The notes under the pieces were generated by a model. The model did no database searches. It was not told the origin of the DNA and worked only from the letters and a program-made list of their open reading frames with translations. Of a DNA stretch of 64,000 nt, positions 2,554-54,976 are shown in pieces. A program made the position numbers and the translations under genes. The stretch comes from a virus (Duplodnaviria; Caudoviricetes): IMG/VR virus record IMGVR_UViG_3300037722_000745, positions 192,001 through 256,000 of that record; one strand, written 5' to 3'. Within the stretch, counting starts at the first letter, position 1. Every line of letters begins with the position of its first letter.

Positions 2554-2659
2554 GTCTCGCCGCAGCGAGCAATCAGGATCGATTCCCAGAGGGCGTCAGC
2601 GAGACGCAACTCGGGTCTTCTGGGTCTCGCCTCAGCGAGCAATCAGGATCGGTTGCCAA
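2554..2659 (-). CRISPR. Cas12j-family mini-array: 2 repeats, 1 spacer (34 nt)
   Basis: Repeats at 2554-2589 (2 mismatches to the 25.7-kb array repeat) and 2624-2659 (loop variant CTGAGG, degenerate 5' end). Confidence 0.9.
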
Positions 2660-2670
2660 CACTGTTTGGC

Positions 2671-3558
2671 TCACACCTGATCCAGCAGGTCGTGCAAGTT
2701 GTCCGCCGAGACGTCCTCTGCCGCAGATCCGCCAAGACCCAATTTGGCCTTGAGTTGGTCGGTGGTCACCTCCCGGAACGGAATCAGCTTGTCGTACAGG
2801 TTGATAGCCTGTCGGAGGACGGCTTGCCTGAGCTGGTCGTTCTTGAGCCAGACCGCAGGCCCGGTAAAACTCACGCTGATGTTCTGGTATTGAGGCTCTT
2901 TGCACTCCAGCTTGATGTCTTGAGAAGCCAGAGCCATGCCGTTTTCACGAAGACTGTCGTTGACCTTCCAGATGTCTTCGTAAATCCGGTTGCTGAAGCG
3001 CCACGGAAGTATGTCGAGCTTGCCCTTTTTGATCTGATCAGCGAGGGCTTCCTTGTTGATGATCTTGCCCTCGCTATCCGTCGGATAGATCAGCAACAAC
3101 GTGGTGAAGTAGGTCTTCACCTCAGGCAGCCTCTTCCAGACAGCGTCGGCCTCCGCCCCGTCTTTCCCCAACCGAGACAGCACAAACCCTAGCCCCTCCT
3201 GGTAGTGCGCCTTCATGACCTTGAAATGCGCCGTGCCGATATCGAGCTTCTCAATGCCAGTCAGCTCGTCAACGCTCTTGTCCAGGCTCTCCGCCTGCTT
3301 CTTAAGAGCGGTCGAGGCCACCTGCTTGATCTCCTCTCGGCTCAGCTTCTGATCTTTCTTCTTCGCTTCTTTGACAGCTTGGCGAACGGTATTCGCGTCT
3401 ACCGTGTGGAAATAGACAAACGCGCACCGAATCGTCTGGCCTTTTTTCGTCAGCTTAAGCCAATCGTTCGACTGTCCTCCGACGTTCTTCTCGTCGGGGG
3501 CAAGAGAAACTTCACCCTCAAAGTCATACTCTTCTGGAATATCGATATTATCACTCAT
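2671..3558 (-). CDS. Putative phage ssDNA-binding protein (gp32-like)
   Basis: About 295 aa, acidic C-terminal tail, sits in the recombination cluster; family assignment is inference. Confidence 0.5.
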   Translation of the reverse strand: MSDNIDIPEEYDFEGEVSLAPDEKNVGGQSNDWLKLTKKGQTIRCAFVYFHTVDANTVRQAVKEAKKKDQKLSREEIKQVASTALKKQAESLDKSVDELTGIEKLDIGTAHFKVMKAHYQEGLGFVLSRLGKDGAEADAVWKRLPEVKTYFTTLLLIYPTDSEGKIINKEALADQIKKGKLDILPWRFSNRIYEDIWKVNDSLRENGMALASQDIKLECKEPQYQNISVSFTGPAVWLKNDQLRQAVLRQAINLYDKLIPFREVTTDQLKAKLGLGGSAAEDVSADNLHDLLDQV

Positions 3559-3663
3559 CTTATGCCTCAATGTTTGGTCGCCCCAACCACTGAGTCCGTT
3601 AGACAAGGAGGTTGAGATACGACGTATCAGGTGACAGGCTCAGGCCGACATTGCCAGGTGGTT

Positions 3664-3699
3664 GTCCCACTCTTAATGGAGGTGGGCTTCCGTTGCGAC
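3664..3699 (-). repeat. Solitary full-length family-2 CRISPR repeat
   Basis: gtcccactcttaatggaggtgggcttccgttgcgac, near-identical to the 51755-52009 array repeats; intergenic. Confidence 0.92.
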
Positions 3700-3774
3700 T
3701 CGTTGAGGAAAGCCAAAGGGCGGGTCTCCCCAAGCCTGTCAAAGACCCGCTACACCAGCGCAACAAGAAAATAG

Positions 3775-4623
3775 TCAGATGTCGTCCAATATCGAGAGAT
3801 CTAGATCCTCCAATATGGCGGCGTTTGACTCACCCACTACCCCTTGTGGTGGAACACCCTCAAACTCGTCCGTAGACTCTAGAAAACGTCGAACATCAGC
3901 TTCGGTCAACTTCGCCCTTTCTCTCTCGGTACCAGAAGATTTAGGGGTCTCTTTCTCGTCCGCACCTTTCTCGTCCCCAACATCAGATTCCTCAGATCCT
4001 GGTTGTTCAGACGTAGTCTCAACAGGTTCGGGCAGCTCATCATCCAACATCGACGCAAGGTCATCCGCGTTGAAATCATCGTCCAAACCCAAACCACCAC
4101 CGGGATCTCTGGGAGAACGCTGGCTCCTAGGAACGCGCTCATCACCGTAGAAAGCACCGGTTGAGATTTCAGTCTGCATGAGACGCCGCTGGTCCTTAAT
4201 CGAGGTCATCGTAGAATGCAGCTCTCGATTTCTATAGGTCACAGCTTTGAGTACAGCGTCGAGCATGTGCATCTGATCTTTGAGTTCGTTGATCCGAAGT
4301 CTCTGATCACGTAGAAAGAAACCCGCAGTTGACTTGCGATCCTCGATATTGGAAAGCGCTCGAACACGGTCGTCATTCGCCAACAGGTTGTCGTACTCAA
4401 GGGCGTATACCGCCTCCAACCGCCGCAGCTCCCCGCCAACCTTCATCTTGTCGCGATTCAATTCGGAAAGGACGAAACCGACCTTGTTGAGATAGTTCCG
4501 ACAGGTTGCAATGATGTCCTGGAAGTAGTTGGGACCCAGGCTGCCAGGGTCATTCGCTAGCTCCAGCGTGTAGGTGTCCATCTCAGCGAAGATGGCGTCC
4601 GCCCGTTCCTCGGTCAGGTCCAT
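3775..4623 (-). CDS. Hypothetical coiled-coil protein with acidic tail
   Basis: 282-aa ORF co-oriented with neighbours. Confidence 0.7.
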   Translation of the reverse strand: MDLTEERADAIFAEMDTYTLELANDPGSLGPNYFQDIIATCRNYLNKVGFVLSELNRDKMKVGGELRRLEAVYALEYDNLLANDDRVRALSNIEDRKSTAGFFLRDQRLRINELKDQMHMLDAVLKAVTYRNRELHSTMTSIKDQRRLMQTEISTGAFYGDERVPRSQRSPRDPGGGLGLDDDFNADDLASMLDDELPEPVETTSEQPGSEESDVGDEKGADEKETPKSSGTERERAKLTEADVRRFLESTDEFEGVPPQGVVGESNAAILEDLDLSILDDI

Positions 4624-4681
4624 AGCTGTCGCCTACACCGCGGCCCGGGTGTGGTAAAGCTTCCATGCCACCTCTCTGGAT

Positions 4682-5305
4682 GTGGAGCTATCTGCCGAGA
4701 GGGTCGCAGCCCGTTACCAGCGTGCGAGCACCGACGTCGTACTGGACCGTTGGGTCGACCTATTCCTCACGGAGTTCGGGCAGGGGACGAAAATCACGGA
4801 GAAGTCCGTAGAAAGGCTCCTCCAGACCCAAGGCATATCAGCAGACGATCTAGAGCTGCTCGATGGCAACAAACAAGCCGGCGAACGTCTGCGTGCTCTT
4901 GGAGGTTGGGTTAGACGCGGCCTTTGGTACCTACTCGTTAGGCCGTTTCTGCTGATCAACAAACTCGTCCGGTCCTCAGCCTTCCGGAACGAGGTCAAAG
5001 CCGCCTTCCACCGGGAGCTGAACCGAGAAGCTCGTTCCACTCGGCACCTGATCAATGTCGCCGGGCGCCTTGCTCGGGGAGAGGCTGTCAGCCCTCATGA
5101 ACGCAAAGCCGCGTTGAAACAACTAGGCAGCCTCATGAGCAAAGCCATCCTCATCACGCTGATCAGTTCCAGCGGGGGTCCTCTCTCGAGTGGGGTGTGG
5201 GCCCCGCTTCGAGCGCTTATGGGGCCGCTGGAGGAGATCTACCTCATCCTGCTTAACCGTCCGCTCCAAGCTACCGTCAAGAAACTGCTAACGGTCCCGA
5301 TCTGA
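4682..5305 (+). CDS. Hypothetical protein
   Basis: 207-aa ORF with N-terminal AERVAARY motif. Confidence 0.65.
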   Translation: MELSAERVAARYQRASTDVVLDRWVDLFLTEFGQGTKITEKSVERLLQTQGISADDLELLDGNKQAGERLRALGGWVRRGLWYLLVRPFLLINKLVRSSAFRNEVKAAFHRELNREARSTRHLINVAGRLARGEAVSPHERKAALKQLGSLMSKAILITLISSSGGPLSSGVWAPLRALMGPLEEIYLILLNRPLQATVKKLLTVPI

Positions 5306-5860
5306 CTTCGCTAGCAAATCCTCCGTGGAAGGCCGCTGAGCTGTTGGGTCCACACCGCACACTGCAGCCAACGACCGAATCCAACGGCTAGCCCGATCTT
5401 GGTCGGAAACGGAGAGCGACTCGAACTTAGGTTCAGGTTGGACTCCCTCCACGTAGTCAAGGTATGCCAAACGAAATTCGTCCAACGTCACCAGAATCCC
5501 CAAATGCCTAAACAGAGCCGTATTGTACTCACGGAATGAACAGTGCGGTTTCAACAGGACTGCAGGATAGACCCAGTCGACCGCAGCCCCTTCCATTGGC
5601 CGAGGTGTCCCCTCGTACTCCGCCACCTGGAAAGTCACCACTTCCCGGCCAGCGAGACATGGATGGCAGAACACGCGATGCATCTTGAGGGCTTCTACAC
5701 CGATCTCCTCACGAGTCTCCCGGAGAGCCGCTTCCACGAAAGTCTCCCCAGGCTCCACGCTGCCGCCCGGCAAGCCGAAATCTAAGTGATCATCTTTGCG
5801 TGAGACCGACAAGACTTTCCCAGAATGGTAGAAAAGAATGGCTACGCCCCTGCTCGGCAT
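5288..5860 (-). CDS. Nudix hydrolase
   Basis: Nudix box GGSVEPGETFVEAALRETREEIG. Confidence 0.9.
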   Translation of the reverse strand: MPSRGVAILFYHSGKVLSVSRKDDHLDFGLPGGSVEPGETFVEAALRETREEIGVEALKMHRVFCHPCLAGREVVTFQVAEYEGTPRPMEGAAVDWVYPAVLLKPHCSFREYNTALFRHLGILVTLDEFRLAYLDYVEGVQPEPKFESLSVSDQDRASRWIRSLAAVCGVDPTAQRPSTEDLLAKSDRDR

Positions 5861-10551: not shown

Positions 10552-10630
10552 TGTCTCGCTCTTTAATAGGTGGCAAGCTACCCTTGAAAGCCTTTAATAG
10601 ACCGCAAACCCTTCGTTGTCAACGATCCAT

Positions 10631-10951
10631 TCAATGGGTTGTTTTCGTGGCTTTCAGCCGCGGGACATCCTCAGGATCAAGCTGCCCAGACTCTACAAGG
10701 CGAGCCAAGATCTCAACCGATTTCAAAGGGGTCACGATAAAACGGACTTCCTCCCCCTGATACTGCTCGAGGATGGTCTGAACGTCCAAAAAATCGAAAG
10801 ACCCATCGGCCTGCTGGATCCGTAGGACCATGCGACCATTCATCGGATCCAGCTCTACAACACCCTCGATAAGGGCTCCCAGATCCAAACCCTCAACGGA
10901 CGGGACAGACGCCATTTGCACACTCTTCAATCTCGACATCTCCACCGTCAT
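10631..10951 (-). CDS. Hypothetical protein
   Basis: 106-aa ORF overlapping the nrdJ end. Confidence 0.55.
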   Translation of the reverse strand: MTVEMSRLKSVQMASVPSVEGLDLGALIEGVVELDPMNGRMVLRIQQADGSFDFLDVQTILEQYQGEEVRFIVTPLKSVEILARLVESGQLDPEDVPRLKATKTTH

Positions 10952-13900
10952 TCACTAGCGGATGGTCGTGTTTGATCCCAGAGAACATCTCCTGAAACTG
11001 CGATTCCGAGATCTCTTCGTACGGAGCTTGAGCATAGCCGTGGGCTTTCGCCAACAAGCTCGTGGATTTAAACCGAGGCACGTACTTCGCCAGCAGCTCC
11101 GCCGTGCGCTCCCTTTCGGTCTCGGGATTGAACGAGAGCGTAGCGGAGACAGAATTGTCCGCCCACCACTCCTGGATCAACGCCTGCCGCTCGAATTGGT
11201 CGTCAATCGTCTCAGTCTGCACAGTCACCCGCGTGTGGACCGCCTTGGTCGGGAACGAGAACACAAGCGTGTGCCCGGTCTGGTCGTAAACATCGTACTC
11301 CCACGCAACCCCAGCCTCTTGTAGCGCTCTAGTCATAGGCTCATTGACGGCCAACCGAGCCCGACGGATGTAGTACGGGGCGAAAGGTGCGTGAATGCCA
11401 GGGCTGCTGGAGTTGAGCAGGCTGATCGTCCCAGAAGGCTTGGTCGTCGTGACCGCGTTCGGGCGGGCTACCCCCAGCTCATCGGCGTAGGAGTTGGCCT
11501 CCAGCCGGCACACCTCGAACCAACGAGCGAGCTGAGGTCCGACCCAGTCGAAATCACAGATGCCACCGAGTCCGACGCCCAAACGCATGTTCTTGCGACG
11601 CACCTCGTCCGACTCCTCATCCAGCAACGGAGTCAGACGCTGGCGCAGACAATAACGGGTGAGCAGGCGGAACACAGTGCCTGGATCGGTCGAACCGTCG
11701 AATTGCGCCGGAAATGCTTCTGCTAGGTTACAAGCTTCTCGATTGTGCAAGGGAATTTCGCCGCATTGTCGCACACTTACGCCTGAAAACCAGAATTTGT
11801 CTAGATTTTTGTGCTCCTTCGTTATTACAGACACAGTGTGGTTTTCGTCCACCGTGAGGTTGTAGACCGTGTGCTCTCCTTCCAGCTCCTCCACACGCGC
11901 AACCTTGTGGTTGTAATCGGACGCAGCTTCCAAGACCTCCGAGAACTTCTTGAAGCCGTGCTTGAGTGTCGGCCCGATACGGGAAGGCACCCCTTCCCCT
12001 TTGCAAGCCAAGGACCATTCCTTGCGATTCGGGTGGCGTCCTAGCCTGAAAGCCAGATCAGAACAAACACGAGCCTGCTCCACTTTGGTCGCGACCTGCT
12101 TGGACCCGTAGTGCGTGTCCATCGCCTGAAGCCGTTTCGCTTTGACCTTCGCGTCACTGTTGATATAGGCGTTGCCACAAGCTTCTGAGCAAAAGGATCG
12201 CTCACGATAGGAATGCTCCACCTCAAACGAGGCCGAACACCCTTCACAAGACTTGACCACAAAGACCTTGGAGTCTTTGATGAAAGCTTCGTACCCTTGT
12301 TCCAACATGGAGCAGAGCGTTTTGATGACACGTGGATCGGTGTCGACGTGCTCCAAGCCAAGCTCCGAAGCACATTGCTTGGCTAGCTCCACAACAGACT
12401 TCCAGGATCGATAGCCAGAGAAGGCTTGCGGGATACCCTGTGCCGAGGCGTACTCCAGCCAATCCTTCTTGCTGAATCGGCGTCCCAATTTACGAGTCAA
12501 CGTCAGACCATGATCCTTCAACTCACCACAGGTCAAACCTGACCAACGACCATTCGCCTCGCCAGAGTTGTCTTTCTCTCCGTGCAACTTGGCGTGATCA
12601 CGAAAAGTCATGATCTGGAGGTTATCAGGAGCGTTGTTCAGCTGATCGTAGTCCTTATGGTGGACTACAAGGCCGCCAGTGTTCGCGAACCCGTTCTCCG
12701 CACATACCGAATAGACCCGATCCCAGCCATCCGGGTCCTGGAAACAAGCAATCAAGCGATGCTCAAATATCTTGTCTCGATCCGGGTGACGCGTGTTGCA
12801 GTAAATACGATAATAGTCCTTACCTCCCTTCTTAACCTTCTCCAGAGCCTTCTTGAAACGCGGCAAACTGTCCCCAGGTTGGAGATCTTTCGCCTCTACT
12901 GGAGTACCATCACGTAGCAAGAAACCGTGGTTCGGCGTGGTGTCTAGGTGACTACCATCATCCAACCACACCCGGACAAGCTTTTGGTTGTAGCCTGTGA
13001 TCCGGGGGTTACGACCCATCTTGATCTCGATCTTGCCGGTCTCCTTGTTCAGGGAGTAAACCGGCACGTCCTCGCCCTCCTCCGCGAGCTGGCGGATCGA
13101 GACAGAATTGCGACCGTCTGCCACGGCGATCTTCGTGTCTCCAGAAAAACACGGATTGATGACGGTGGCCCCAGGATCGGTCTTGCGGATGAGCGCCAGG
13201 TTCAGCAGACCGGGCTCCCCGTAGAGGATGTTGTCCTCGACCATCCCATGCCAATCGAACTCGGCAATCTGCTTGTCTGTGTAAAACAGCAGCGAGTTGT
13301 TGCTGGTGTGCCGATGAGACTTCACAGCTTCGAAGTCCTTCTTCGCGTCCCGGAAAGGCCGATCCTCCGCGTCGCCCAAAACGATCAAGGCTGACCGGCG
13401 GACATTACCGGACTTCACACAGAACCCGATCAAGTTGGTGATATCGAGGCACTCAACGCTCGTCAAGCCGCGTCCCACCGCTCCACGCACGATGTCCCAC
13501 GAAAACCTCAGCAGCATCGACAGCGGGCCCGGACCGCACGCAACACCTCCAAACGTACGAATAGGCTCGCCCCGAGGGCGGATGTCCGAAAGGTCTACGA
13601 TGATATCCCGACCTTCGAAAGCCGCCTGGAGAACGAGACGCAAGGACTCTACCCACCCCTCACGTGAGTCAGGGATCTGGTGGACCGGGGTCTGACCGTT
13701 CAGGAACTCTTTGTCATTGGGCCCCACATCCTCAACGTTAGGATGATCATGGCGGCACCACACCGCCATGCGTGAGGAACCTGATCCTGCACTGACCTTT
13801 CCCAGCAAGCCGAGGGATCCCAATCCCACCCCGACGCCTCCGCCCAACATCAACTGGTTCATCACCCAACACCAGTCGTCGATCGAGCGGAGCGTGACTC

Positions 13901-23971: not shown

Positions 23972-25375
23972 TCAATCCGCGCCCTTGAGGTTCGAGACCG
24001 GGTAAAGCCGGTGTTCAACTCTCGCAATCCCCTCCGCCTCTAGAACGGCGAGAACCGCGTCGAGATCCTTGTAGACGTGCCCGCACTCATCAAGCGGCGT
24101 CTTCTTGTGATTGCCCACGATCCCCTCGATCTGGACGCCGCCGAAGGTTCGCTTGACGCTCGCCATCTCGTTGTCGATTCGAGCCTGCTTGTGCCCCAGC
24201 CGGCGCTTCGCTTCTGAGCGGCCTAAGATCCGACCCGAACCGTGGTTCACCGAGCAGGCGGACTTGTAGGCCCCATCTCCCGGGAACAGGATCGCAGCAC
24301 CTTCGTACATCGAGCCCGGAATGAGGCACGGGTGACCCGTAGTCTCCCACGCCGTCCCTACCAGGTCAGGATGCCCTGCCGGAAAGGCTCGGGTTGCTCC
24401 CTTCCGATGCACGAAGCCCCGCTTGTGGGTCCCGTCGGGCAGCACAAGGGTCTCTTCCTGCACCAGGTTGTGGCTGATCTCGTAGTAGACTTCGAGGTCA
24501 GCGTTGAACACTTCCTGCGTCGCCTCTTGAACCCCCACCACGATCTGATGACGGTTCGCGACCGCGAAGTTGGCCGCCGAGTTGTGGTAAGCCCAGTACT
24601 CTCGACCAAGAGGCTCATCTATTCGAAGCCAGGAATCCTCTCGACGGTTCTTCGGTAACCCCCGGAGAGCGGCCCCTTCGTAGAAGAAGTGGTTCGCCGT
24701 CTGCCAACCGTAGCCCCGCGACCCACAGTGGACCATCACCCAAACCGACCCGTCATCTCGATCGACTTGCATCTCGATGAAGTGGTTGCCGCCACCCACG
24801 CTACCGAGCTGGTCGGACACCTTCGAGTAGGCTTTCTCGATGTGACTTAGATCCAACGTCTCCGGGATCGGGATGTACCGCCGCTCACAGAGCGCCTCGT
24901 TGATCCCCAAAGACTTGGCCCCATATCGAAGCACCTCGTCGACCTGACGAGAGCCCAGCCGCCTCATGAGGGCAGGCCGCTCGGACCCTACGCCGGTCGC
25001 CACCCGCTTCTCGACTTCCTCGACCCACTGCTGACGCTTGTGCCGACTCCGAACCGCCTTGGCTCCAAGGTTCACTTTCATGCAAAGAGCCCCGCACGAG
25101 ATGTCGTAGCCCGAGCCGCCCTGGATGATCGTGTCTTCAGTCACGATGACCGAGCCGACCGGCACGCCGTATCCCCTGTGGCAATCCGGCATCAGGTACG
25201 CCCCAATGACCCCCTCGTAGGACGCCCCGTTCGCGATCTGCTGCCAGACCGACTCTTCCGACGCCGCATAAAGGTCATCCGACAAAAAGGCATGAGCCTC
25301 CACCCGCATCTGCCCAACGCGGGGCAGCACGTAGTGATTGTCGCTGACCTTCTGAGCCTGGTACTTGAAAGACAT
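23972..25375 (-). CDS. rtcB: RtcB RNA ligase
   Basis: MPDCHRGYGVPVG, GYDISCG, GSVGGGNHFIE, MVHCGSRG, SHN, HRKGATRA, NHGSGR. Confidence 0.95.
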   Translation of the reverse strand: MSFKYQAQKVSDNHYVLPRVGQMRVEAHAFLSDDLYAASEESVWQQIANGASYEGVIGAYLMPDCHRGYGVPVGSVIVTEDTIIQGGSGYDISCGALCMKVNLGAKAVRSRHKRQQWVEEVEKRVATGVGSERPALMRRLGSRQVDEVLRYGAKSLGINEALCERRYIPIPETLDLSHIEKAYSKVSDQLGSVGGGNHFIEMQVDRDDGSVWVMVHCGSRGYGWQTANHFFYEGAALRGLPKNRREDSWLRIDEPLGREYWAYHNSAANFAVANRHQIVVGVQEATQEVFNADLEVYYEISHNLVQEETLVLPDGTHKRGFVHRKGATRAFPAGHPDLVGTAWETTGHPCLIPGSMYEGAAILFPGDGAYKSACSVNHGSGRILGRSEAKRRLGHKQARIDNEMASVKRTFGGVQIEGIVGNHKKTPLDECGHVYKDLDAVLAVLEAEGIARVEHRLYPVSNLKGAD

Positions 25376-25704: not shown

Positions 25705-26179
25705 GTCTCGCCGCAGCGAGCAATCAGGATCGGTCCCCAGCGGCTGATTCCTGCCGGAGGCAGTCACGCCTACTCCGCGTCTCGCCGCAGCGAGCAATCA
25801 GGATCGGTCCCCAGCTGATCATCACGATTCAGCTGCCGGCATCCGCTTCAAGTCTCGCCGCAGCGAGCAATCAGGATCGGTCCCCAGGACGTCCTCGAGA
25901 TCAACGGCAACGAGTACGACGCGAGGTCTCGCCGCAGCGAGCAATCAGGATCGGTCCCCAGCTACGGCGTCCGACGTGATGAGCGTGGCCGCGAGAACGT
26001 CTCGCCGCAGCGAGCAATCAGGATCGGTCCCCAGCAGCGTGCGAGCTGCGGATCGGTGGCTGCAGCCTTGTGTCTCGCCGCAGCGAGCAATCAGGATCGG
26101 TCCCCAGCTGCAAAAACTGGACTTCGCGTTATATGCCGTCCTCGTCTCGCCGCAGCGAGCAATCAGGATCGGTCCCCAG
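25705..26179 (-). CRISPR. Type V (Cas12j) CRISPR array: 7 repeats, 6 spacers (36-38 nt)
   Basis: Identical 36-nt repeat CTGGGGACCGATCCTGATTGCTCGCTGCGGCGAGAC with 3' hairpin CTCGC/GCGAG, 128 bp downstream of cas12j. Confidence 0.98.
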
Positions 26180-26307: not shown

Positions 26308-28464
26308 TCACTCAGCCGCGAGAGACTCCAGGGGGGTAGACGCCACTGAGGCTCTCGCGGCTTTCCGGAGGGATACACCAGTGATGGCTACCATCGCGAT
26401 ATTATAGGCAGCCACATCGATGTCCGCGTTCCCACGGTACCCGCAACAAACACATATGAAAGCTTCACGATTGACTCGGTCTCGATTGGCCTTGTCACAG
26501 TGCCCGCACTCGGGGCACGTCCGTGATGTATTATACGGATCCACTTTGATCACCCGATAGCCTCGGTGCACAGCCAAGTCGCAGAACGCTCCGAAGAGAG
26601 CGTCCATGAGCCACCGCCCTTCCTGTTTGGCTGCGAAGAAACCACCCCACCCTGACTTACGGCTCCCCTTCCCGCCTCTACGGAAGCTGTGATGAAGGTC
26701 CTCGACCGCTACGATGACCTTTCCGCACTGAGCCCGCTTCTCGGCTGTCCTAATGACGTAGTTGACGCAGTGTCGCGACAACTCCTTCTTGCGGATGGAT
26801 AGCTGGTGGTACTTCGAGCTGTTCCTTTCAGCCTCCCATTTGGCTTCGTTCAGTGCCTTGCGGGTCTCGGATGTCAGTTGAGGCCGAAAATGCTGAGCCC
26901 AGTTCACGTCCCATCTCTTGCGAATCTCGGTCTTCCGCTTTTTCCCTTTACCCTTGAAGAAGGGGAACATGTAGAGCGTGTCGTCCACACCACGTTCCTT
27001 CGCCAAGTCAGATAGAATAGAGCTTCGACTGTTCACCTTGTCCCAGGGTACTTCATCCACCGATAGCCCGAGATGGCCACACACCTGCATCTTGGCTTGC
27101 TCTGGTCCGAAGGTATCCAACGCCAACACCTCCGCTTGTTGTTCGGCGGTCAGAGAGCGTACGGCTGCTAACCGCAAATTCTCTTGGTGCTTGTCATACG
27201 CCTTACGAAACCGGAAGAAGTCCTCTACAGTCTGCTCCGGTAACGTAAAAGCCTGCAACCGTTCTACGCACTTCCCTGGACGAATCCGTAGCGCATTCGC
27301 AGCGATCAAGTTGTTGACGCCTAGATCGACACCTACGAGGCTAAACGTCTCCGTGGTGTCATCTAGCATCTTCGACACATAGGATCCCTTCACAACCTTG
27401 GCCTTGACGACCGGCACGACCCCTTGCTTATAGATCAACGTGGCGGTGTAACGTACCGGCTTGCCCGGCTTCTTCACTACACTCAACGTGGGGTCATTCG
27501 TCACCAGATTCAGAAGACTCTCAATCGTCACCGGCACCGATCGGTCTAACAATTTGCGGTACTGTGTGTTGCGGAGAAGCCCTCGGAGATCGAGAAGTGC
27601 CCAGTCATCAGCTACCCTAACGACCGCCAACAACATGTTGTCGTCGATCGCCCCACCACGTGAGCGTGCCCAAGAAGCCCGTTTCCGACGGTGCTTCTTA
27701 ACGGAAAGATTTTCTCGATCCCATGGGGGTACATACCCCGGTTGACCTTCAGGTATCTCTAGCCGATCTACACCACAAGCGGCGATGGGTGTTGACGGAT
27801 CTCGGCTATAACCCGTCACCCCAGGAATGGACCCAGGCACATAGGGCTTCAACTTCATATGCTGGTACCCAAACACGCTACAGTTGATCCCCGGGCGGTG
27901 CCGCAGATGACCTGTCTCATCGAGGGCCGTTTCAGGTTCGTCGAGTGTTAGAAGAGGTAGGCCACGTTCTGCCCGATGCTCGTTCCGCTGTTCAATCTTT
28001 GCTACCTTTTTGCTGTTGCGATTCTCAACCTTCTTGAGAACCCCCTCGTAGGTGGCCCGAGCGTTTTGGAAAATCAGGTTGAGACCTTGGACATTGAAGT
28101 ACCCGTCCGTGTCCACCCGCGTAGCCTTAAGCCAGGCCCTAAGCCCTGCTTCAGACTTCCCAGGATCCGTAGCCTTGAACTCCTCGTAACTCTGAGCATA
28201 GACGTACTTCTGGATCACCACCGACGCTTTGTAGATCGGCCACTCCTCCAAAGGCCGACTCATCGCCACGATGTTACACTTCACCGGAGGTTTGAAATTA
28301 GGCTGTGTTGTGCCCCCCTTTCCTTCAAGAAAGGCCACAGCAGCGCCTTCGCCTTTCGACTTGAGGATCCTACCAGCCTGCCTCGAGTCATGTTTTTTGA
28401 ACCGCAGCCCAGGGAAGGACTTCTTACAGAGGGCGACGAGTGGGGTTTCCTTTTTGTCTGGCAC
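26308..28464 (-). CDS. cas12j: Cas12j (CasPhi) type V effector, 718 aa
   Basis: Split RuvC (VGVDLG, VAVEDL, NADIDVAAYNIA), Zn ribbon CPECGHC..C..C, and NVQGLNLIFQNAR and C-terminal LAAE segments recalled from CasPhi-1; adjacent array; no cas1/cas2 in the window. Confidence 0.93.
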   Translation of the reverse strand: MPDKKETPLVALCKKSFPGLRFKKHDSRQAGRILKSKGEGAAVAFLEGKGGTTQPNFKPPVKCNIVAMSRPLEEWPIYKASVVIQKYVYAQSYEEFKATDPGKSEAGLRAWLKATRVDTDGYFNVQGLNLIFQNARATYEGVLKKVENRNSKKVAKIEQRNEHRAERGLPLLTLDEPETALDETGHLRHRPGINCSVFGYQHMKLKPYVPGSIPGVTGYSRDPSTPIAACGVDRLEIPEGQPGYVPPWDRENLSVKKHRRKRASWARSRGGAIDDNMLLAVVRVADDWALLDLRGLLRNTQYRKLLDRSVPVTIESLLNLVTNDPTLSVVKKPGKPVRYTATLIYKQGVVPVVKAKVVKGSYVSKMLDDTTETFSLVGVDLGVNNLIAANALRIRPGKCVERLQAFTLPEQTVEDFFRFRKAYDKHQENLRLAAVRSLTAEQQAEVLALDTFGPEQAKMQVCGHLGLSVDEVPWDKVNSRSSILSDLAKERGVDDTLYMFPFFKGKGKKRKTEIRKRWDVNWAQHFRPQLTSETRKALNEAKWEAERNSSKYHQLSIRKKELSRHCVNYVIRTAEKRAQCGKVIVAVEDLHHSFRRGGKGSRKSGWGGFFAAKQEGRWLMDALFGAFCDLAVHRGYRVIKVDPYNTSRTCPECGHCDKANRDRVNREAFICVCCGYRGNADIDVAAYNIAMVAITGVSLRKAARASVASTPLESLAAE

Positions 28465-31727: not shown

Positions 31728-31850
31728 AACAACCGTAGTTGCAGAATTCACACGGTTTCTCAGAATCCACCCCTGAGGGAGGTGAAAGCCTCCCTCGTAA
31801 TTGAAACACCACTGAATAGGAATCCGGTGTCAGGTTGTGACGTGGATCGA

Positions 31851-32637: not shown

Positions 32638-32975
32638 ATAACCTCAGTTCAGCGCGGACAAGCCACGCTGTTGGACAGCTGTAACAGCTCCCTTTCGAAC
32701 ATACTGTACGATTCCCTGCGGGCTAATACACAGATCCTCAATAGAAAACCTGACGGCTGCCTTACAACAACTGCGACCCCAACCCGCACTCAGTGCTCGA
32801 CGACCCGCTTGATCACAAGAGCAACGACCGCAATTGAGGCACACGTAAACCTGCTCTTCAGGAACGGCCATAGCATTCCCTCTCCCACACTACACCACGA
32901 AGCACCCTATGAAAGAATTACATCAACGGTGTTCATCTTATCCCCGTGCCTAAAAGGACCGTGCCTAAAAGGACC

Positions 32976-32994
32976 GTCTCGCCGCAGCGAGCAA
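32976..32994 (-). repeat. Solitary Cas12j-family repeat (3' 19 nt)
   Basis: gtctcgccgcagcgagcaa abutting a 15-bp tandem duplication (32944-32973). Confidence 0.85.
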
Positions 32995-36496: not shown

Positions 36497-36544
36497 TGTC
36501 AGGACGTGGGATCGAACCACGCTGGCTTCCAAACAAGTCCTGAC
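36497..36544 (-). other. tRNA-like minihelix (acceptor plus T arm, no D arm) fused to a repeat
   Basis: GTCAGGA...CGTGG-TTCGATC-CCACG-TCCTGAC-A. Confidence 0.6.
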
Positions 36545-36563
36545 GTCTCGCCGCAGCGAGCAA
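36545..36563 (-). repeat. Solitary Cas12j-family repeat (3' 19 nt)
   Basis: gtctcgccgcagcgagcaa. Confidence 0.85.
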
Positions 36564-36592: not shown

Positions 36593-36719
36593 CGGGGCTA
36601 TTGGGAGTCGAACCCAAGCTTGTAAGGACCAACAGCGTCTCGCTTGCACGAGAGAGGGTTGAACCTGGTTTGTTTCCTCGTTATTAGCAAGGTGACGGAC
36701 CGACCGTCTGTATAGCCCC
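36593..36719 (-). ncRNA. tRNA-like RNA with large variable-region insert (Y-RNA-like family, copy 1)
   Basis: Acceptor GGGGCTA/TAGCCCC, T arm, insert with GCAA hairpin and CTTACAAGC. Confidence 0.6.
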
Positions 36720-38912: not shown

Positions 38913-39863
38913 CTAACCCACATGCCGAAACACTACAAGACGACCTTCCCGCTCCGCCTGGCGAATGACCGGCGGCAGAGATTCTAAACTCAACCAAGCA
39001 TCCCCGCGGGTGCCGCCCGCAAAATCCGTGTCGTCGTAGTGTGCCGTCAGACAGATGCCCGCGTCGATGATCTGTAGAGTCCGAGCGTCGCATGTGCACT
39101 CGTAACGCCGCCCACCCATCCGGAACCGCACGACCATCTCGTTGCGTCGCGGGGCCTGCCGGTGATCGAGATACTCAGCCTCACCAACCGCGAGAGCCGC
39201 CCGAGCCGCGGTCCCGAAATCCTCTTGGGCCAACGCCCGCCGGCCAGCACCATCACCGAGCTGCTCCGCGATCTCCCGACGACGGGTTTCCCGCTGCCGT
39301 TCCTCTTCCTCACGCTGAAGGCGTTCCGCCAGCTCCCGCCGACGCCGCTCCGCCTCCAACCGCCGCCACCGCTCAAGCGTGAAGGCGACATCCAAAGCCG
39401 GCGACACCTCTCGGATATCAGCTAGCGTATCCTTGCCGTCCAGAAAGGCCGTCTGCACCTCGAACTCGGGCCCCAGAGGCATTTCTTGCTGGATGTAGAC
39501 CAACGGGCCGTCCTCGGACACGCGGCCCGCAGAGACCCGTACGAAGCGATCTAGGCCCGGTTCGATGAGATGGACCCGCTCCGTCTCGCTCTTAAAGGAG
39601 GCGAGCTTCCTTTGCGAAGCCGACACGAGCCGATCGCCGACCAGGTAGCCTACCTCTCGGTACTTGAGCTGCTCCGGCTCGGGATCACACACCTCCTGGA
39701 CCCGAGCCGTCCGACCGCCCACCGAGAACCGAACCCAGCCATGCTCCGCCGGCAGCCGACCCTCGATCACCCACCGACGTGGGCCCGACCGGAGGGACCT
39801 ACCCCCAATCCAAGGCGCGACAAGCGTCTCGCCTTCAGTCGCAAGTAAGTCTCTCCAACCCAT
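38913..39863 (-). CDS. Putative E2-like (UBC-fold) protein containing an in-frame CRISPR repeat
   Basis: C-terminal IIDAGICL (candidate catalytic Cys); operon with JAB, Ubl and E1. Confidence 0.6.
   Translation of the reverse strand: MGWRDLLATEGETLVAPWIGGRSLRSGPRRWVIEGRLPAEHGWVRFSVGGRTARVQEVCDPEPEQLKYREVGYLVGDRLVSASQRKLASFKSETERVHLIEPGLDRFVRVSAGRVSEDGPLVYIQQEMPLGPEFEVQTAFLDGKDTLADIREVSPALDVAFTLERWRRLEAERRRRELAERLQREEEERQRETRRREIAEQLGDGAGRRALAQEDFGTAARAALAVGEAEYLDHRQAPRRNEMVVRFRMGGRRYECTCDARTLQIIDAGICLTAHYDDTDFAGGTRGDAWLSLESLPPVIRQAEREGRLVVFRHVG
39583..39618 (-). repeat. Solitary family-2 repeat inside a CDS
   Basis: gtctcgctcttaaaggaggcgagcttcctttgcgaa encodes SQRKLASFKSET. Confidence 0.88.
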
Positions 39864-40329: not shown

Positions 40330-40713
40330 CTACCAGACGACGCCCCCACCTCGTTTTTCAAGCCGGCCCGCAGAGACCCGTACAAAGCGATCTAGGCCCG
40401 GTTCGATGAGATGGACCCGCTCCGCAGCACGGAGAACCTCCCCGTCCGCTTGTCCAGCCTGAACCGAGGACGGTACGAGGCGATCTCCAACGAGATAGCC
40501 AACCTGCCTGTGCCACAGGCTTTCTAACTCAGGTTCGGCCAGAGCCTTGACCTGAGCCTTACGTCCCTCCAACGCAAACTCAATCCAGCCATGCTCTACA
40601 GGAAGGCTCCCCTCGATGACCCAGCGACGGGAGCCCGACCGGAGGGACCGGCCCCCAACCCAAGGTGCGACAATCGTCTCACCTTCTTTCTGAAGTAGGG
40701 TCCTCCAAGTCAT
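40330..40713 (-). pseudogene. Truncated paralog of the E2-like gene (N-terminal 127 aa)
   Basis: APWVGGRSLRSG, EHGW, YLVGDRLV and ERVHLIEPGLDRFVRVSAGR shared with the E2-like gene. Confidence 0.8.
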
Positions 40714-41642
40714 GACTCTCCAACCCTAATCTTCCAGGACTCCAAACTCTCACCACGTCTTCTACGTCGGGCCAACTTCAGTCTTGCTTCGGGGGTACTA
40801 AGAGCCTTCGTTATAGCCTCGCTATGTTTGGCTTTAACTTCGGGGATACTGAGTGTCTGGGCTATAGCCCTACCGCGTTTCTCTTTCTCCCCAGGTTGAG
40901 CCCATTGGCCTTTCATCCTACGACTCATAGCGGCCAGCCGTTCCAAAGTCATTGATGCTTGAACACCAATCTTATGGCGCTTCTTCACCTCAGGTAGGGC
41001 CAGTCTCTTAGCTGCCTCAATGCTTAGCTTCTTTCGCACCTCACTTGTATACCCGGCTTTTTGAAGCTTGATGCGTTGCCCCCTTTCCTCGGCCGAGTAC
41101 CCAGCCCAAGATGCCTTAAGACCCGCACTACGTTTCTCCTTCTCACCGGGTCTGGAGTAAACCTCCAACATCTTAGCTCTACGACGAGCTTTAGAATCAG
41201 GTTGACTGCAGGCCAAGATCAACGCTTCACGGTGCCTAGCCTTTACGTCGGGCCGTGCCATAGCTAACTTTACCCCAGCACTGTTCTTAGCTCGAACCTC
41301 CGGCCTATTCTGAGCCTCTTTCCCAGACACCGACATTTTCCGTCGAGTCTCTGCCGAAGGCTTCCCGTTTGACCCACCTGTCTTCAGATTGTACCCAAGC
41401 GGAGACAGAGAGGTGGCCACCCATTTAATTTCCAGCGCATCCAATTCCTCTTTCGAGGATGCCTCACCAACGACCTCAAACACGAATTTGTCTCGGCCAT
41501 ACTTGGCGATAGCCGCCCGCAAAGCGTGGCAATGGCTGTCAGTCCTGAAATGATGTGACCACCTCTCCGAAGGGTTGATGGTTTGACCGTGGTAACATTT
41601 TCCGCTGACCAAACAACGAATCCTGTAAACCAAACCGTACAC
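40710..41642 (-). CDS. GIY-YIG homing endonuclease with NUMOD3-like repeats
   Basis: GLVYRIRCLVSGKCYHGQT, GYNLKTGG, SAETRRKMS. Confidence 0.88.
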   Translation of the reverse strand: MYGLVYRIRCLVSGKCYHGQTINPSERWSHHFRTDSHCHALRAAIAKYGRDKFVFEVVGEASSKEELDALEIKWVATSLSPLGYNLKTGGSNGKPSAETRRKMSVSGKEAQNRPEVRAKNSAGVKLAMARPDVKARHREALILACSQPDSKARRRAKMLEVYSRPGEKEKRSAGLKASWAGYSAEERGQRIKLQKAGYTSEVRKKLSIEAAKRLALPEVKKRHKIGVQASMTLERLAAMSRRMKGQWAQPGEKEKRGRAIAQTLSIPEVKAKHSEAITKALSTPEARLKLARRRRRGESLESWKIRVGES

Positions 41643-43635: not shown

Positions 43636-43654
43636 GTCTCGCCTCAGCGAGCAA
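43636..43654 (-). repeat. Solitary Cas12j-family repeat (3' 19 nt, CTGAGG loop variant)
   Basis: gtctcgcctcagcgagcaa, 45 nt upstream of the vWA start. Confidence 0.85.
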
Positions 43655-43781
43655 ATTACCGCTAAGGAGGATGACGGCGCCCGTGGTGTCTACTACACCG
43701 AAAAGCCAGAACTCGACCGAGTTAAAGAGAGCGGGTTTTTGCTGGACCCTGGATTCCCCCGGAAGGGCAGGTCGAGTTTAG

Positions 43782-44336: not shown

Positions 44337-44377
44337 GTGTTCCCGAAACAGGCGTCCTACCAGTGGACTACACCCCG
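44337..44377 (-). pseudogene. tRNA-Pro(CGG) 5' half
   Basis: CGGGGTGTAGTCCACTGGTAGGACGCCTGTTTCGGGAACA. Confidence 0.65.
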
Positions 44378-45443: not shown

Positions 45444-45706
45444 ACGAAAATTCTACGAACTCCGGATCCACCTCGTCGTTGGGGATCGTCGTCAAGAGGG
45501 TCGCGATCGACTTCCGTTGAAGGTCGTTGGTAATATCCTCCAATGTTGGCACCGTACCCCCATCAGCACCAATGAAGATCCTACCGCGACCCCGCTTTCC
45601 GAGTTCCAACCTCCTGCGTTCGCTCGGTTCCACCCAGAAGGTGATGCCCGCGAGGTTGGCTGTGTATGTGATGCGGACTCGTGTCATGCTGAAAAGACTA
45701 CACCAG

Positions 45707-46538: not shown

Positions 46539-46646
46539 TCAATGTTTCCCGCATCGAAGAGCCTTTCGATCCTGTCCCACTCTTGATGGAGGTGGGCTTC
46601 CCTTACCATTTACCCTACGGATGTAGGGCCTGTATTTGTTTCGCAC
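46539..46646 (-). pseudogene. Paralog of 45787-46044 interrupted by a family-2 repeat
   Basis: MRNKYRPYIRRVNGK, then repeat-encoded GSPPPSRVG, then early stop. Confidence 0.65.
46574..46601 (-). repeat. Solitary family-2 repeat (3' 28 nt)
   Basis: 28/28 match to the array repeat. Confidence 0.92.
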
Positions 46647-47241: not shown

Positions 47242-47327
47242 CCGGCTCCCACTTGAGATATGGACTCAATGGTCTGGGGGACCATTCGGTAGCGTCGTGT
47301 CTTAGGCATGAGATCCACTACACCACT

Positions 47328-48875: not shown

Positions 48876-48911
48876 GTCTCACTCTAGAGGGAGGTGAGCT
48901 TCCCTCGCAAC
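48876..48911 (-). repeat. Solitary family-2 repeat variant
   Basis: gtctcactctagagggaggtgagcttccctcgcaac, 29/36 to the array-type repeat with compensatory stem CTCAC/GTGAG; 4 nt upstream of tRNA-Arg(TCT). Confidence 0.8.
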
Positions 48912-50051: not shown

Positions 50052-50158
50052 GTCTCGCCGCAGCGAGCAATGAGTGCATGACTACACCAAGCCAACAAGC
50101 GCTGATGGAAGCAGGCCAGTTGCGTGACTACGTAGTGGACCTGTCGGGAGTTGAACCC
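50052..50158 (-). repeat. 107-bp duplication (copy A) ending in a 20-nt Cas12j-family half repeat
   Basis: 2 mismatches versus 51439-51545. Confidence 0.9.
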
Positions 50159-51355: not shown

Positions 51356-51391
51356 GTCTCGCTCTTAGGGGAGGCGAGCTTCCTTTGATCC
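51356..51391 (-). repeat. Solitary family-2 repeat variant
   Basis: gtctcgctcttaggggaggcgagcttcctttgatcc; stem CTCGC/GCGAG. Confidence 0.78.
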
Positions 51392-51438: not shown

Positions 51439-51545
51439 GTCTCGCCGCAGCGAGCAATGAGTGTATGACTACACCAAGCCAACAAGCGCTGATGGAAGCA
51501 GGCCAGTTGCGTGACTACGTGGTGGACCTGTCGGGAGTTGAACCC
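51439..51545 (-). repeat. 107-bp duplication (copy B) ending in a 20-nt Cas12j-family half repeat
   Basis: See copy A. Confidence 0.9.
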
Positions 51546-51754: not shown

Positions 51755-52009
51755 GTCCCACTCTTGATGGAGGTGGGCTTCCGTTGTGACCGTGCGGATT
51801 TCGGAGATGACGCTGAAGCCGTCATCGGTCCCACTCTTGATGGAGGTGGGCTTCCGTTGTGACTTCGCTCCGATCGCAATCCCGCAGGATCGCGACCAGC
51901 CGTCCCACTCTTGATGGAGGTGGGCTTCCGTTGCTGCCAGGCAGGACGGCTCGAAGTGGCTAAGATGATGTTGGTCCCACTCTTGATGGAGGTGGGCTTC
52001 CGTTGCTGC
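51755..52009 (-). CRISPR. Second CRISPR array (family 2): 4 repeats, 3 spacers (36-38 nt), no adjacent cas gene
   Basis: 36-nt repeat GTCAC/GCAGC-AACGGAAGCCCACCTCCATCAAGAGTGGGAC; leader-like region 52010-52160. Confidence 0.95.
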
Positions 52010-52896: not shown

Positions 52897-53295
52897 TGGA
52901 CTCGGTGGGAATCGAACCCACGTCCTAGAAAGCTATCGAACAGCGTCTACGTGCGTAGCGTGACTTCGGACTCGGTTAAGGTCGTGCCCATGCCTCACGC
53001 CGGCTTCCACCTGGGGCGTGACTGGTTTTCCAGTCTTGCCTCCACCACCGATCTAGCGACCTAAGGTCTTGCGACCCGTTTCCCACAGCCAATCGGACTC
53101 TGTGGTGCAGCCCTGCGTTTACTTACGCCGCTCGAAATCGAAGCAGGGAATCTACCCCGAGCGACGGCTCAGGCAGCCTGAGCAAAGCCGTTATAGTTGG
53201 CTTTTCTTGTTTGGTCGGCTTGATAACCCGGCCTGCTGACCAACCGGGGCACGCTGCTGCTCGAATTACCTCCCAGTCGAAACCTTTACGAGCCC
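52897..53295 (-). ncRNA. ssrA: tmRNA
   Basis: GGGCTCG/CGAGTCC-A with G3:U70, GGTTTCGAC 5' motif, T arm; tag frame ends ANYNGFAQAA-stop. Confidence 0.92.
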
Positions 53296-53625: not shown

Positions 53626-53647
53626 GTCTCGCCTCAGCGAGCAATCA
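53626..53647 (-). repeat. Solitary Cas12j-family repeat (3' 22 nt) fused to a tRNA 3' end
   Basis: gtctcgcctcagcgagcaatca; followed on the minus strand by GACTCCCTCCGTCGCTACCA. Confidence 0.88.
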
Positions 53648-54216: not shown

Positions 54217-54236
54217 TTGTTTGGTTGCGGGAGCCG

Positions 54237-54264
54237 GTCTCGCTCTTTCAGGTGGCGAGCTACC
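54237..54264 (-). repeat. Degenerate solitary family-2 repeat between duplicated tRNA-fMet 3' ends
   Basis: 24/28 to the 54941 variant; 14-bp direct repeat at 54224-54237 and 54281-54294. Confidence 0.72.
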
Positions 54265-54281
54265 ACGGTTTTTCAAACCAG

Positions 54282-54353
54282 TTGCGGGAGCCGGAATCGA
54301 ACCGACGAGGCTTGGGTTATGAGCCCGAGTTGAGGGCCAACACTCTTCCCGCG
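54282..54353 (-). tRNA. Initiator tRNA-fMet(CAT)
   Basis: C1xA72 mismatch, GGG/CCC anticodon stem. Confidence 0.85.
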
Positions 54354-54354
54354 G

Positions 54355-54427
54355 TGGCCAGAGAGGGAATCGAACCCCCGACGCCTTCATCTTCAGCGAA
54401 GCGCTCTACCAACTGAGCTATCTGGCC
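54355..54427 (-). tRNA. tRNA-Phe(GAA)
   Basis: Cloverleaf. Confidence 0.9.
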
Positions 54428-54431
54428 GTTG

Positions 54432-54472
54432 TGGTGGGTCCTCTCGGGATCGAACCGAGTTCTCCGATTTTT
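54432..54472 (-). pseudogene. tRNA 3' half (from the anticodon loop to CCA) fused to a repeat
   Basis: AAAAATCGG-AGAA-CTCGG-TTCGATC-CCGAG-AGGACCC-ACCA. Confidence 0.75.
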
Positions 54473-54508
54473 GTCTCACTCTTGTAGGGGGTGAGCTTCC
54501 CTTACTCC
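54473..54508 (-). repeat. Solitary family-2 repeat variant
   Basis: gtctcactcttgtagggggtgagcttccctt; stem CTCAC/GTGAG. Confidence 0.78.
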
Positions 54509-54535
54509 CCACTGGCCTACTAGCCAACCACTCAG

Positions 54536-54607
54536 TGCTCCTACGGGGAATCGAACCCCGGCCGCCGGGGTGAAAACCCAGCATCCTGACCACTAGACGA
54601 TAGGAGC
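54536..54607 (-). tRNA. tRNA-Glu(TTC)
   Basis: Cloverleaf. Confidence 0.88.
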
Positions 54608-54609
54608 GT

Positions 54610-54685
54610 TGGCGTCCCTACAGAGATTTGAACTCTGGTTTCCAGATTGAGAATCTGGCGTCCTGGCCGACTAGACGATAGGGAC
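54610..54685 (-). tRNA. tRNA-Glu(CTC)
   Basis: Cloverleaf, CCA. Confidence 0.9.
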
Positions 54686-54686
54686 G

Positions 54687-54762
54687 TGGAGCCCGCGATC
54701 GGGATCGAACCGACTACCTCCTGCGTACGAAGCAGGCGCCCTACCTTCAGGGCCTCACGGGC
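54687..54762 (-). tRNA. tRNA-Thr(CGT)
   Basis: Cloverleaf, CCA. Confidence 0.88.
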
Positions 54763-54826
54763 AAAGCGTGGCGAGCCTTCGGGGCCTCTTACACAGATCG
54801 CCGTACAGACGATGCGACCACACTAG

Positions 54827-54895
54827 CAGGCCGGCAGGGAATCGAACCCTGTCCTACGGATTTGGAGTCCGTTTGGCTTCCTTAGCCCCCGACCT
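54827..54895 (-). tRNA. tRNA-Trp(CCA)
   Basis: Compact cloverleaf. Confidence 0.8.
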
Positions 54896-54940
54896 AGATT
54901 TATCTCGCTCTTCCGCCAGCCAAGGCATACACGCATTGCT

Positions 54941-54976
54941 GTCTCGCTCTTGAAGGAGGCGAGCTTCCTTTGCGAG
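54941..54976 (-). repeat. Solitary family-2 repeat variant
   Basis: gtctcgctcttgaaggaggcgagcttcctttgcgag, nearly identical to the copy inside the E2-like gene. Confidence 0.85.

Follow-up and report, generated by a model that had tools for sequence, protein, structure and literature searches.

In the TnpB systems of IS200/IS605 elements, the guide is supplied by the DNA that flanks the transposon, behind the scaffold RNA, and the element keeps the target apart from its adjacent motif. In work on spacer–protospacer recombination (Varble 2019), CRISPR loci are reported to be transferred by transduction; stable solitary repeats inside phage genes are not known to have been described there. Solitary repeats in viruses are already known, mainly as decoys against host CRISPR. 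Such viral SRUs are single repeat copies, often placed right downstream of a promoter, and some of them act as RNA anti-CRISPRs, or Racrs (Faure 2019; Camara-Wilpert 2023, PMC10651486). Virus mini-arrays serve in inter-virus conflict as minimal CRISPR units with guides against relatives (Medvedeva 2019; PMC11656645), while delocalised crRNAs and crRNA-like RNAs rely on partial matches to direct binding at promoters or homing sites (PMC11656645; bioRxiv 10.1101/2024.10.29.618823).

The window analysed here, 64,000 nt of a 323-kb phage contig, belongs to a genome with about 20 lone handle copies from two CRISPR repeat types. A sequence-only reading of the window had listed 14 solitary repeats, six of the Cas12j family (F1) and eight of a second family (F2). 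All of them were recovered in place by pattern scans, repeat-family grouping (D1/D2/D4) and covariance models, with covariance-model E values of 1e-5 to 1e-12; the most diverged is the unit at 54237 (38 bits). Each keeps its 3′ hairpin-GAC end and lies on the minus strand, as had been claimed, yet almost every gene in the window is on the minus strand too, as is every window feature given coordinates below. A fifteenth copy in the window is F2-like (10553–10590), and five more lie beyond it in the contig, at genome positions 11450(−), 87499(+), 126196(−), 286427(+) and 297925(+). The sense orientation prevails (15 of 19 solitary copies), and two of the copies outside the window are antisense to neighbouring genes.

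Like SRUs and Racrs, these units stand outside arrays and within a mobile element, the phage, and the F2 copies are single repeats in a virus genome without a cognate cas gene in the element. Unlike viral SRUs, they number about 20, represent two type V subtypes in one genome and are concentrated in a tRNA cluster; further, the F1 copies fit the phage's own Cas12j, and several of them run directly into native genes at PAM-adjacent sites, with one set in frame within a conserved gene. Apparently undescribed so far are a Cas12j phage with this many solitary units (about 20) of two type V subtypes, the packing of such units into a tRNA operon and their joining to native genes at PAM-type junctions, once in frame within a conserved gene. 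Reported as observed below are the anatomy of the units, the conservation of their handles with covariation, the positions of the junctions and the genomic context.

The cognate effector of F1 is encoded by the same genome. The cas12j gene (26308–28464; 718 aa) has a Pfam TNB domain, and in phmmer searches against the PDB its product matched CasPhi-2 (7lys, E 2.3e-159) and Cas12j-SF05 (E 1.7e-150). It adjoins an array of seven 36-nt F1 repeats (25705–26179), whose 3′ end is the published Cas12j-2 repeat motif GATTGC-stem-GAC. A mini-array of two F1 repeats and one 34-nt spacer (2554–2659) separates a 311-aa ORF from the next one. With this mini-array and a four-repeat orphan F2 array, the phage resembles carriers of virus mini-arrays; the solitary units differ in that their ‘spacer’ is the phage's own contiguous DNA, with no second repeat bounding it.

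Judged from sequence, the solitary F1 units are the minimal handle of Cas12j, from position −1 to about −19/−22. They retain U-18/G-17 and A-2/C-1 (TTGC-stem-loop-stem-GAC), which are contacts in the Cas12j3 structure, and their stem is 100% paired, with three of the five pairs changed on both sides across phages. The earlier proposal that the solitary units keep exactly the effector-binding handle is borne out. The handle at 32976–32994 is followed by a 15-nt tandem duplication, the one at 36545–36563 directly by a tRNA-like minihelix (36497–36544), and the one at 53626–53647 by a 20-nt tRNA 3′ end with CCA. Two F1b units, which combine the promoter-like motif GGTGTAGT with an F1 handle, are duplicates with 97% identity over 113 nt: one (50052–50096) precedes a 17-nt tRNA 3′ fragment and tRNA-Ser, the other (51439–51483) the 19 nt that remain of a syntenic tRNA-Leu(cag), a gene still present in the relative L018. 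The handle at 43636–43654 lies in the 5′ UTR of a VWA gene, 45 nt downstream of a promoter motif that is conserved in relatives, and belongs to an insertion of about 75 nt as compared with L018 and a second relative, L017.

The second family is not an unknown partner of Cas12j: by homology its scaffold is of the Cas12m (type V-M) type, about 29 nt with a pseudoknot. The last ~29–30 nt of the 36-nt F2 repeat form this stem and pseudoknot scaffold, with AC at the end, and columns 8–36, which are conserved among the solitary copies, correspond to the part of the 36-nt Cas12m2 scaffold that is ordered; the published GoCas12m scaffold has ~30 nt and a pseudoknot. The main stem is 98% paired with two covarying pairs, the pseudoknot helix shows one swap, and the copies fall into three stem variants. 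In other metagenome contigs (L028 and L029/L030, apparently one element), F2 arrays adjoin a 794-aa protein that matches Cas12m structures (E 4e-24). No Cas12m homologue was found in the 323-kb contig, itself about 68% complete, which leaves F2 without a cognate gene in the contig where F1 has cas12j.

Most solitary F2 copies in the window are near tRNAs. One follows tRNA-Gln (46574–46605), others stand 4 nt before tRNA-Arg(tct) (48876–48906), 14 nt before tRNA-Leu(caa) (51356–51387) and between tRNA-Asn and tRNA-Trp (54941–54976). Behind the diverged unit at 54237–54266 stand 15 nt that repeat the tRNA-Met 3′ end, and behind the unit at 54473–54504 a 41-nt tRNA 3′ part ending in CCA. The copy at 3664–3699 is intergenic and identical to the array repeat at 35 of 36 positions, that at 10553–10590 stands 1 nt before a start codon, and that at 39583–39617 lies inside a conserved gene, here called B. 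The orphan F2 array (51755–52009) holds four repeats and three spacers, its last repeat 4 nt upstream of tRNA-Asp.

The model offered with the sequence-only reading left out the strong tie of the units to the tRNA cluster and to promoters. The cluster (32455–55829; 42 tRNAs and a tmRNA), the only one in the contig, contains 13 of the 19 solitary units, an enrichment with p 2.7e-11 by length and 2.4e-5 by non-coding space. The motif GGTGTAGT has 21 copies, 19 of them intergenic, and stands 10–52 nt upstream of five solitary units, far above chance. The 17–22 kb loci of syntenic relatives contain no F2 units and only 0–2 F1-like hairpins each, at non-orthologous positions, and no cas12j in the corresponding interval between a conserved 780–789-aa gene and RtcB. 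The unit at 48876 is missing from the corresponding spacer of L017 and L018.

It had further been claimed that, at several sites, GAC is followed by the downstream part of a gene that has been interrupted. This holds for gene B (39583, in frame) and likewise for the tRNA 3′ fragments at 36545, 50052, 51439, 53626, 54237 and 54473. At 43636, the 55 nt following GAC are missing from relatives and are therefore not native DNA. As for the flank said to be replaced, TTC precedes the homologous sequence in intact homologues of the junctions at 50052, 51439, 53626 and 54237, and homologues of the 39583 junction are preceded by TGC (paralogue), TTC (L018) and CTC (L017). TTC or TGC is therefore seen at five sites, which represent about three independent events, and the rule fails at 48876, where relatives have ATC and CGC; the sites at 3664, 32976, 36545, 46574, 51356 and 54941 are not readable in this respect. 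The three Cas12j T-loop junctions may be a single event spread by tRNA T-arm recombination, and both ends of the 113-nt F1b duplicate lie in T-arm sequence. The idea of a PAM-replacement scar likewise survives for about three independent junctions, but not at 54237 and 10553, which are insertions flanked by direct duplications (13 and 8 nt, respectively) and where the PAM-bearing copy is still present upstream. Where the T-rich PAM (TTC/TGC) is found at the junction only in uninterrupted copies, the filled locus has no PAM and would hence be self-immune.

Gene B (38913–39863; 316 aa) belongs to a conserved huge-phage family. Its F2 unit puts 31 nt in place of 40 nt, replacing a variable loop with the frame kept, and adjoins the family's most conserved block. 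Fragment A (40330–40713), which corresponds to the 5′ portion of a paralogue of B, lies beside a GIY-YIG homing endonuclease gene (40710–41642) that has no counterpart at the same position in relatives. In fragment A, TGC precedes 38 nt that match the guide position of gene B perfectly. The tract of high identity between the two copies spans 61 nt at 98%, next to the repeat on its protospacer side, against 70% elsewhere; it exceeds the length of a 36–38-nt spacer and is more in keeping with conversion between alleles than with capture from an array. Where the repeat adjoins a T-arm or gene B sequence, it stands beside the protospacer's first base with the PAM gone, as spacer–protospacer recombination (Varble 2019) would leave it. 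Unlike in that process, the source spacer was not found in this phage: spacers of the present arrays matched neither the junction sequences nor the available relatives, so that the assumed source spacers are hypothetical.

The reading we favour, tentatively and with rather less than even confidence, is that repeats were captured at PAM-adjacent protospacers, with loss of the PAM, which left self-inert units of handle and native guide that are probably transcribed. A repeat-spacer unit or its crRNA would have undergone recombination with a matching protospacer next to a PAM in the phage genome itself, the putative targets being tRNA genes at their T-arm TTC sites and the conserved block of gene B. 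With the GAC end of the repeat in the PAM position, the locus would no longer be targetable. Since the units are oriented with transcription in the tRNA operon or closely follow a phage promoter motif, RNAs joining handle and native sequence should be released, presumably by transcription, effector processing and tRNA processing. These RNAs would be inert on the phage itself; they could occupy the phage-encoded Cas12j, or a Cas12m from the missing part of the genome, the host or another element, and in related phages they could recognise alleles that lack the interruption and still have the PAM. That the units are expressed and loaded, and that they might affect rivals, are predictions of this reading; no RNA runs containing this DNA were found. 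A point against guide function is that several of the ‘guides’ would measure only 4–14 nt once RNase P has cleaved. The order of scaffold and flanking DNA as guide is that of TnpB; unlike TnpB, the units have no nuclease gene, transposase or transposon ends, and the effector would act in trans, that of F2 being non-cutting. If expressed and loaded, the units would represent a phage's escape from targeting by capture of the targeting repeat, as well as a naturally occurring parallel to tRNA-flanked guide RNA arrays, and the sequence predictions are clear enough for in vitro Cas12j and Cas12m tests of both ideas.

A possible, though on the whole unlikely, alternative is that the units are Racr-like RNA anti-CRISPRs or decoys: handles strongly expressed from the tRNA operon would soak up Cas12m, and perhaps the Cas12j of rival phages, and guide function would be irrelevant. 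Promoter-adjacent viral units without cas genes are known, some of them Racrs, and non-targeting crRNA inhibits as well. The absence of a cognate F2 effector from the contig is in line with this, as are the three stem variants of F2, which could cover several Cas12m variants. Further, several units abut tRNAs so closely that a mere 4-nt tail would be left, and the phage-like contigs L031 and L032 also carry solitary or tandem F2 handles. One concern is that the F1 copies, which fit the Cas12j encoded by this phage, would dilute the phage's crRNAs. The decoy function also leaves the PAM-adjacent junctions and the in-frame copy in gene B unexplained, and the phage has kept a real F2 array with three spacers.

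Capture without consequence, in which the units are neutral scars of array-target exchange or of tRNA-cluster shuffling and have no present function, is likewise unlikely in our view. Fragments of tRNAs without adjoining repeats abound in the cluster, and unit positions differ between relatives. Decayed copies exist as well: at genome position 297925, as a degenerate hairpin near 36650, and at L018 13384, where the end reads GCC. Against neutrality, the loops and 5′ flanks of F2 have diverged, yet its 22 structural positions show compensated changes only. Nor would neutral scars account for five units just below the promoter motif or for the preserved frame of gene B.

More speculative, and improbable, is the proposal that crRNAs write their own handles into the genome. 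Once bound to a PAM-flanked protospacer, a crRNA would act as template or recombination partner, its handle entering at the PAM-protospacer boundary or, with a short duplication, inside the protospacer (54237, 10553), and the resulting heritable, hard-wired, PAM-less guides would pass between co-infecting relatives as minimal RNA-guided drive elements that act in trans. Somewhat more doubtful still is the full model of the sequence-only reading, in which every unit homes, or acts as a gene drive, with itself as template: its crRNA would direct cleavage of PAM-bearing empty alleles in sibling phages, and repair would copy the repeat in. The PAM-type junctions, the co-conversion-like tract beside the gene B repeat and the presence of cas12j speak for it. 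However, eight of the 14 units have the scaffold of Cas12m, which binds DNA and does not cut it and whose gene is absent from the contig, so that cut-and-repair homing cannot apply to these sites as stated. The F1b duplicates carry different ‘guides’, so the second did not arise through the guide of the first. Further, a cutting system would not tolerate the perfect TGC-flanked target that persists in fragment A, and no empty alleles were found in the Logan contigs of four metagenome runs, which are identical to the window.

Least credible is a role as RNA-processing or regulatory sites, with Cas12j or another RNA-binding factor attaching to handles within 5′ UTRs and polycistronic tRNA transcripts to cut, stabilise or repress these. 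Cas12j1 and Cas12j2 do process their own pre-crRNA, most copies are sense, one unit (43636) is in a 5′ UTR, another (10553) precedes a start codon by 1 nt, and one in the relative G001 is upstream of an RBS, but two copies are antisense to their neighbours, and the order of tRNAs is the same in relatives without the units, which means that tRNA maturation does not depend on them.

As atypical single repeat and guide units outside arrays, the solitary copies also recall delocalised crRNAs. Among promoter- or homing-type targets, only a 13-nt match of 54237 to the neighbouring tRNA-Met was found. The Cas12m locus on L028 itself bears single repeat-plus-guide units near its genes.

The parent contig is a single viral sequence of 323 kb, estimated to be 68% complete, of which the window is bases 192001-256000; it carries three CRISPR repeat families. 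The cas12j nuclease gene (window 26308-28464, minus strand; E 2e-159 to CasPhi-2) is followed by a seven-repeat array of the Cas12j family, F1 (25705-26179), with an RtcB RNA ligase gene directly downstream of the array (23972-25375, minus strand). No close Cas12j homologue was found among IMG/VR or GenBank phages. The second family, F2, forms a four-repeat orphan array (51755-52009) inside a tRNA cluster (32455-55829, minus strand) that holds all 42 tRNA genes of the contig and its tmRNA gene (52897-53295, minus strand). The third, F3, has the 3' end ATTGAAAC and resembles type I/III repeats. Its four arrays lie far from the window; there are also at least five solitary F3 copies, including one in the window (31775-31807, plus strand). 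Elsewhere, F3 sites lie at genome positions 1-257, 61.3-61.9 kb, 64.6-65.5 kb, 120.2-121.2 kb, 10715, 285970, 286134 and 322376. One F3 spacer shares a 29-nt match with the phage's own DNA, adjoining TTC. F1 and F2 spacers gave no match (blastn, tblastx) to the contig, the relative G001 or the syntenic loci of relatives, and a weak spacer match in the VWA gene was judged unconvincing.

The 14 solitary units reported in the window by the sequence-only reading, lone repeat copies outside arrays that keep the 3' hairpin-GAC end, were all recovered as described by covariance models trained on the solitary units themselves (E 1e-5 to 1e-12). The models added an overlooked unit at 10553-10590, and five further solitary copies lie beyond the window. 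The tRNA cluster makes up 7.2% of the contig, yet contains 13 of the 19 solitary F1 and F2 copies known at the time of the test (p 2.7e-11 by length; 2.4e-5 against non-coding space). Within the window all units do lie on the minus strand, but 15/19 units point the same way as their two neighbours, with 2/19 antisense, so that the uniformity partly reflects gene orientation. Directly after the GAC of F1 unit 32976 comes a stretch of 15 nt that is perfectly duplicated in tandem (2.3 copies, 32944-32977). We found no paper on solitary repeats linked to tRNA clusters or to Cas12j phages.

The F1 repeat ends in GATTGC-stem-GAC, as does the published Cas12j-2 repeat. Its solitary copies keep 19-22 nt, spanning U-18/G-17 and A-2/C-1, where handle contacts have been reported for Cas12j3, and the stem pairing is invariant across the phage and its relatives, with three of five pairs altered on both sides. 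F2 was ruled out as a Cas12j repeat; F2-type arrays in other metagenome contigs adjoin a Cas12m-like protein of 794 aa (Cas12m structure match, E 4e-24, metagenome scan) and the scaffold fits Cas12m. The published Cas12m scaffold is ~30 nt long and contains a pseudoknot, its first seven nucleotides being disordered; F2 agrees in length, pseudoknot and conserved columns. Among the solitary F2 copies, conservation within the 36-nt repeat covers columns 8-36, the stem is 98% paired with two covarying pairs, and a second helix gives the pseudoknot. The PAM of published Cas12m is TTN or T/C-rich, and the protein binds DNA without cutting it. No Cas12m homologue was found in the 323-kb contig (68% complete). 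In L028, one of the metagenome contigs with a Cas12m-like gene, a short series of repeats with 15-18-nt spacers runs into the 3' part of the cas12m ORF, and a degenerate repeat lies directly upstream of a T5orf172-domain gene (L028 7321-7454 and 10285-10444); both may be regulatory crRNA-like units.

At several sites the native phage DNA directly after GAC, the 'guide', is tRNA sequence. F1 units 50052, 51439 and 53626 are followed by tRNA 3' ends of 17-20 nt starting at T-loop position 57, which in intact homologues is directly preceded by ggTTC. The fragment at 51439 is a remnant of tRNA-Leu(cag), which L018, a syntenic locus of a relative, retains at the same place. Behind F2 unit 54237 lies a copy of the 3' end of tRNA-Met; the intact tRNA-Met gene 44 nt upstream has the same sequence after a different TTC. 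Units 50052 and 51439 belong to a 113-nt duplicate whose two ends both lie in T-arm sequence, so the three T-loop junctions may represent one event. Through a 113-nt duplication tRNA-Thr(ggt) and tRNA-Ala(tgc) have an identical 3' end; both score poorly as tRNAs. Fragments of tRNAs are numerous in the cluster, and one F1 handle is directly followed by a minihelix of 48 nt made up of acceptor and T-arm (36497-36544, minus strand).

Gene B (38913-39863), a member of a large conserved huge-phage family, carries F2 unit 39583, where 40 nt of a variable loop were exchanged for 31 nt with the frame intact; the most conserved block of the B protein comes directly after the unit. Between the VWA gene and B lies an insertion (40330-41642, minus strand) that consists of a GIY-YIG homing endonuclease gene and, downstream of it, fragment A, a truncated B paralogue (40330-40713); both are absent from this position in L017 and L018. 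Identity between A and B is ~70% before the unit and 98% over the 61 nt after it. This tract is preceded by TGC in fragment A, and the corresponding flank reads TTC in L018 and CTC in L017. A TTC or TGC flank is thus seen in intact homologues at 50052, 51439, 53626, 54237 and 39583 (with CTC in L017), but not at 48876, where relatives have ATC and CGC, contrary to the PAM rule; at 43636 the inserted DNA comprises the handle and a further 55 nt and has no native counterpart. Flanking direct duplications, clear at 54237 alone and marginal at 10553, were rejected as a general signature. Genome 10757-11746 (L023) contains an entire RNase HII gene, then an antisense F1b unit (motif GGTGTAGT plus F1 handle), then an in-frame, diverged RNase HII C-terminus fragment, which resembles the remains of a gene left where recombination took place.

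A candidate phage promoter element, the motif GGTGTAGT, has 21 copies in the contig, 19 intergenic and most aimed at a gene start 15-130 nt off; copies in the window lie at 43692-43699, 44367-44374, 45697-45704, 47317-47324, 50081-50088, 51468-51475 and 32889-32896 (all minus strand). L017 and L018 retain the motif upstream of the VWA gene. In this phage it precedes the three F1b handles by 10 nt, unit 43636 by 45 nt and an F2 copy (genome 286427) by 52 nt.

A handle joined to native DNA at a putative protospacer start is the trace expected if a repeat-spacer unit recombined with the DNA it targets, which would join the handle at the protospacer start with loss of the PAM. Debris alone is a less likely reading, because the handles are kept and covary, candidate promoters lie near and the gene B copy is in frame. 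On both grounds we tentatively favour, as a possibility suggested by sequence features, captured repeats now yielding putative self-inert handle-plus-native-guide RNAs, which may serve as guides against relatives, as decoys, or in both roles. A strong rival for F2 is that its units act as decoys, since their effector has no gene in the contig and belongs to a class that merely binds DNA. The full homing model proposed earlier, in which each unit is a self-templating PAM-replacement scar, is weakened by the Cas12m-type identity of F2, by the 'guide' of 39583 matching fragment A in the same genome, and by unrelated 'guides' in the F1b duplicates. Further, Logan contigs from four metagenome runs, covering 36-56 kb, showed no empty alleles: they were identical to the window, and their joints stemmed solely from unrelated tRNAs and assembly breaks at repeats. 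Host tRNA targeting was rejected: one tRNA-fragment 'guide' with TTC matched only gut Bacilli and Muribaculaceae MAG tRNAs, deemed coincidental because the phage is from sediment or soil, and a second had no match.

L017, L018/L020, L026 and L027 have their tRNAs in the same order as this phage and also have its VWA-B-JAB-ThiF block, and between a conserved 780-789-aa gene and RtcB this phage has cas12j where L020 and L027 have other genes. The relatives' 17-22 kb loci have just 0-2 F1-like hairpins each, at non-orthologous positions, and lack F2 units; the abundance of solitary units thus goes with the phage's own CRISPR content. IS200/IS605-type mobilisation was dismissed, the sole TnpB-like gene sitting in an IS607-like unit unrelated to the hairpins. 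This unit (genome 292778-294579, L001) encodes a serine recombinase that has a MerR-type HTH; its TnpB is divided between two ORFs, an 82-aa HTH ORF and a 282-aa OrfB/TNB ORF.
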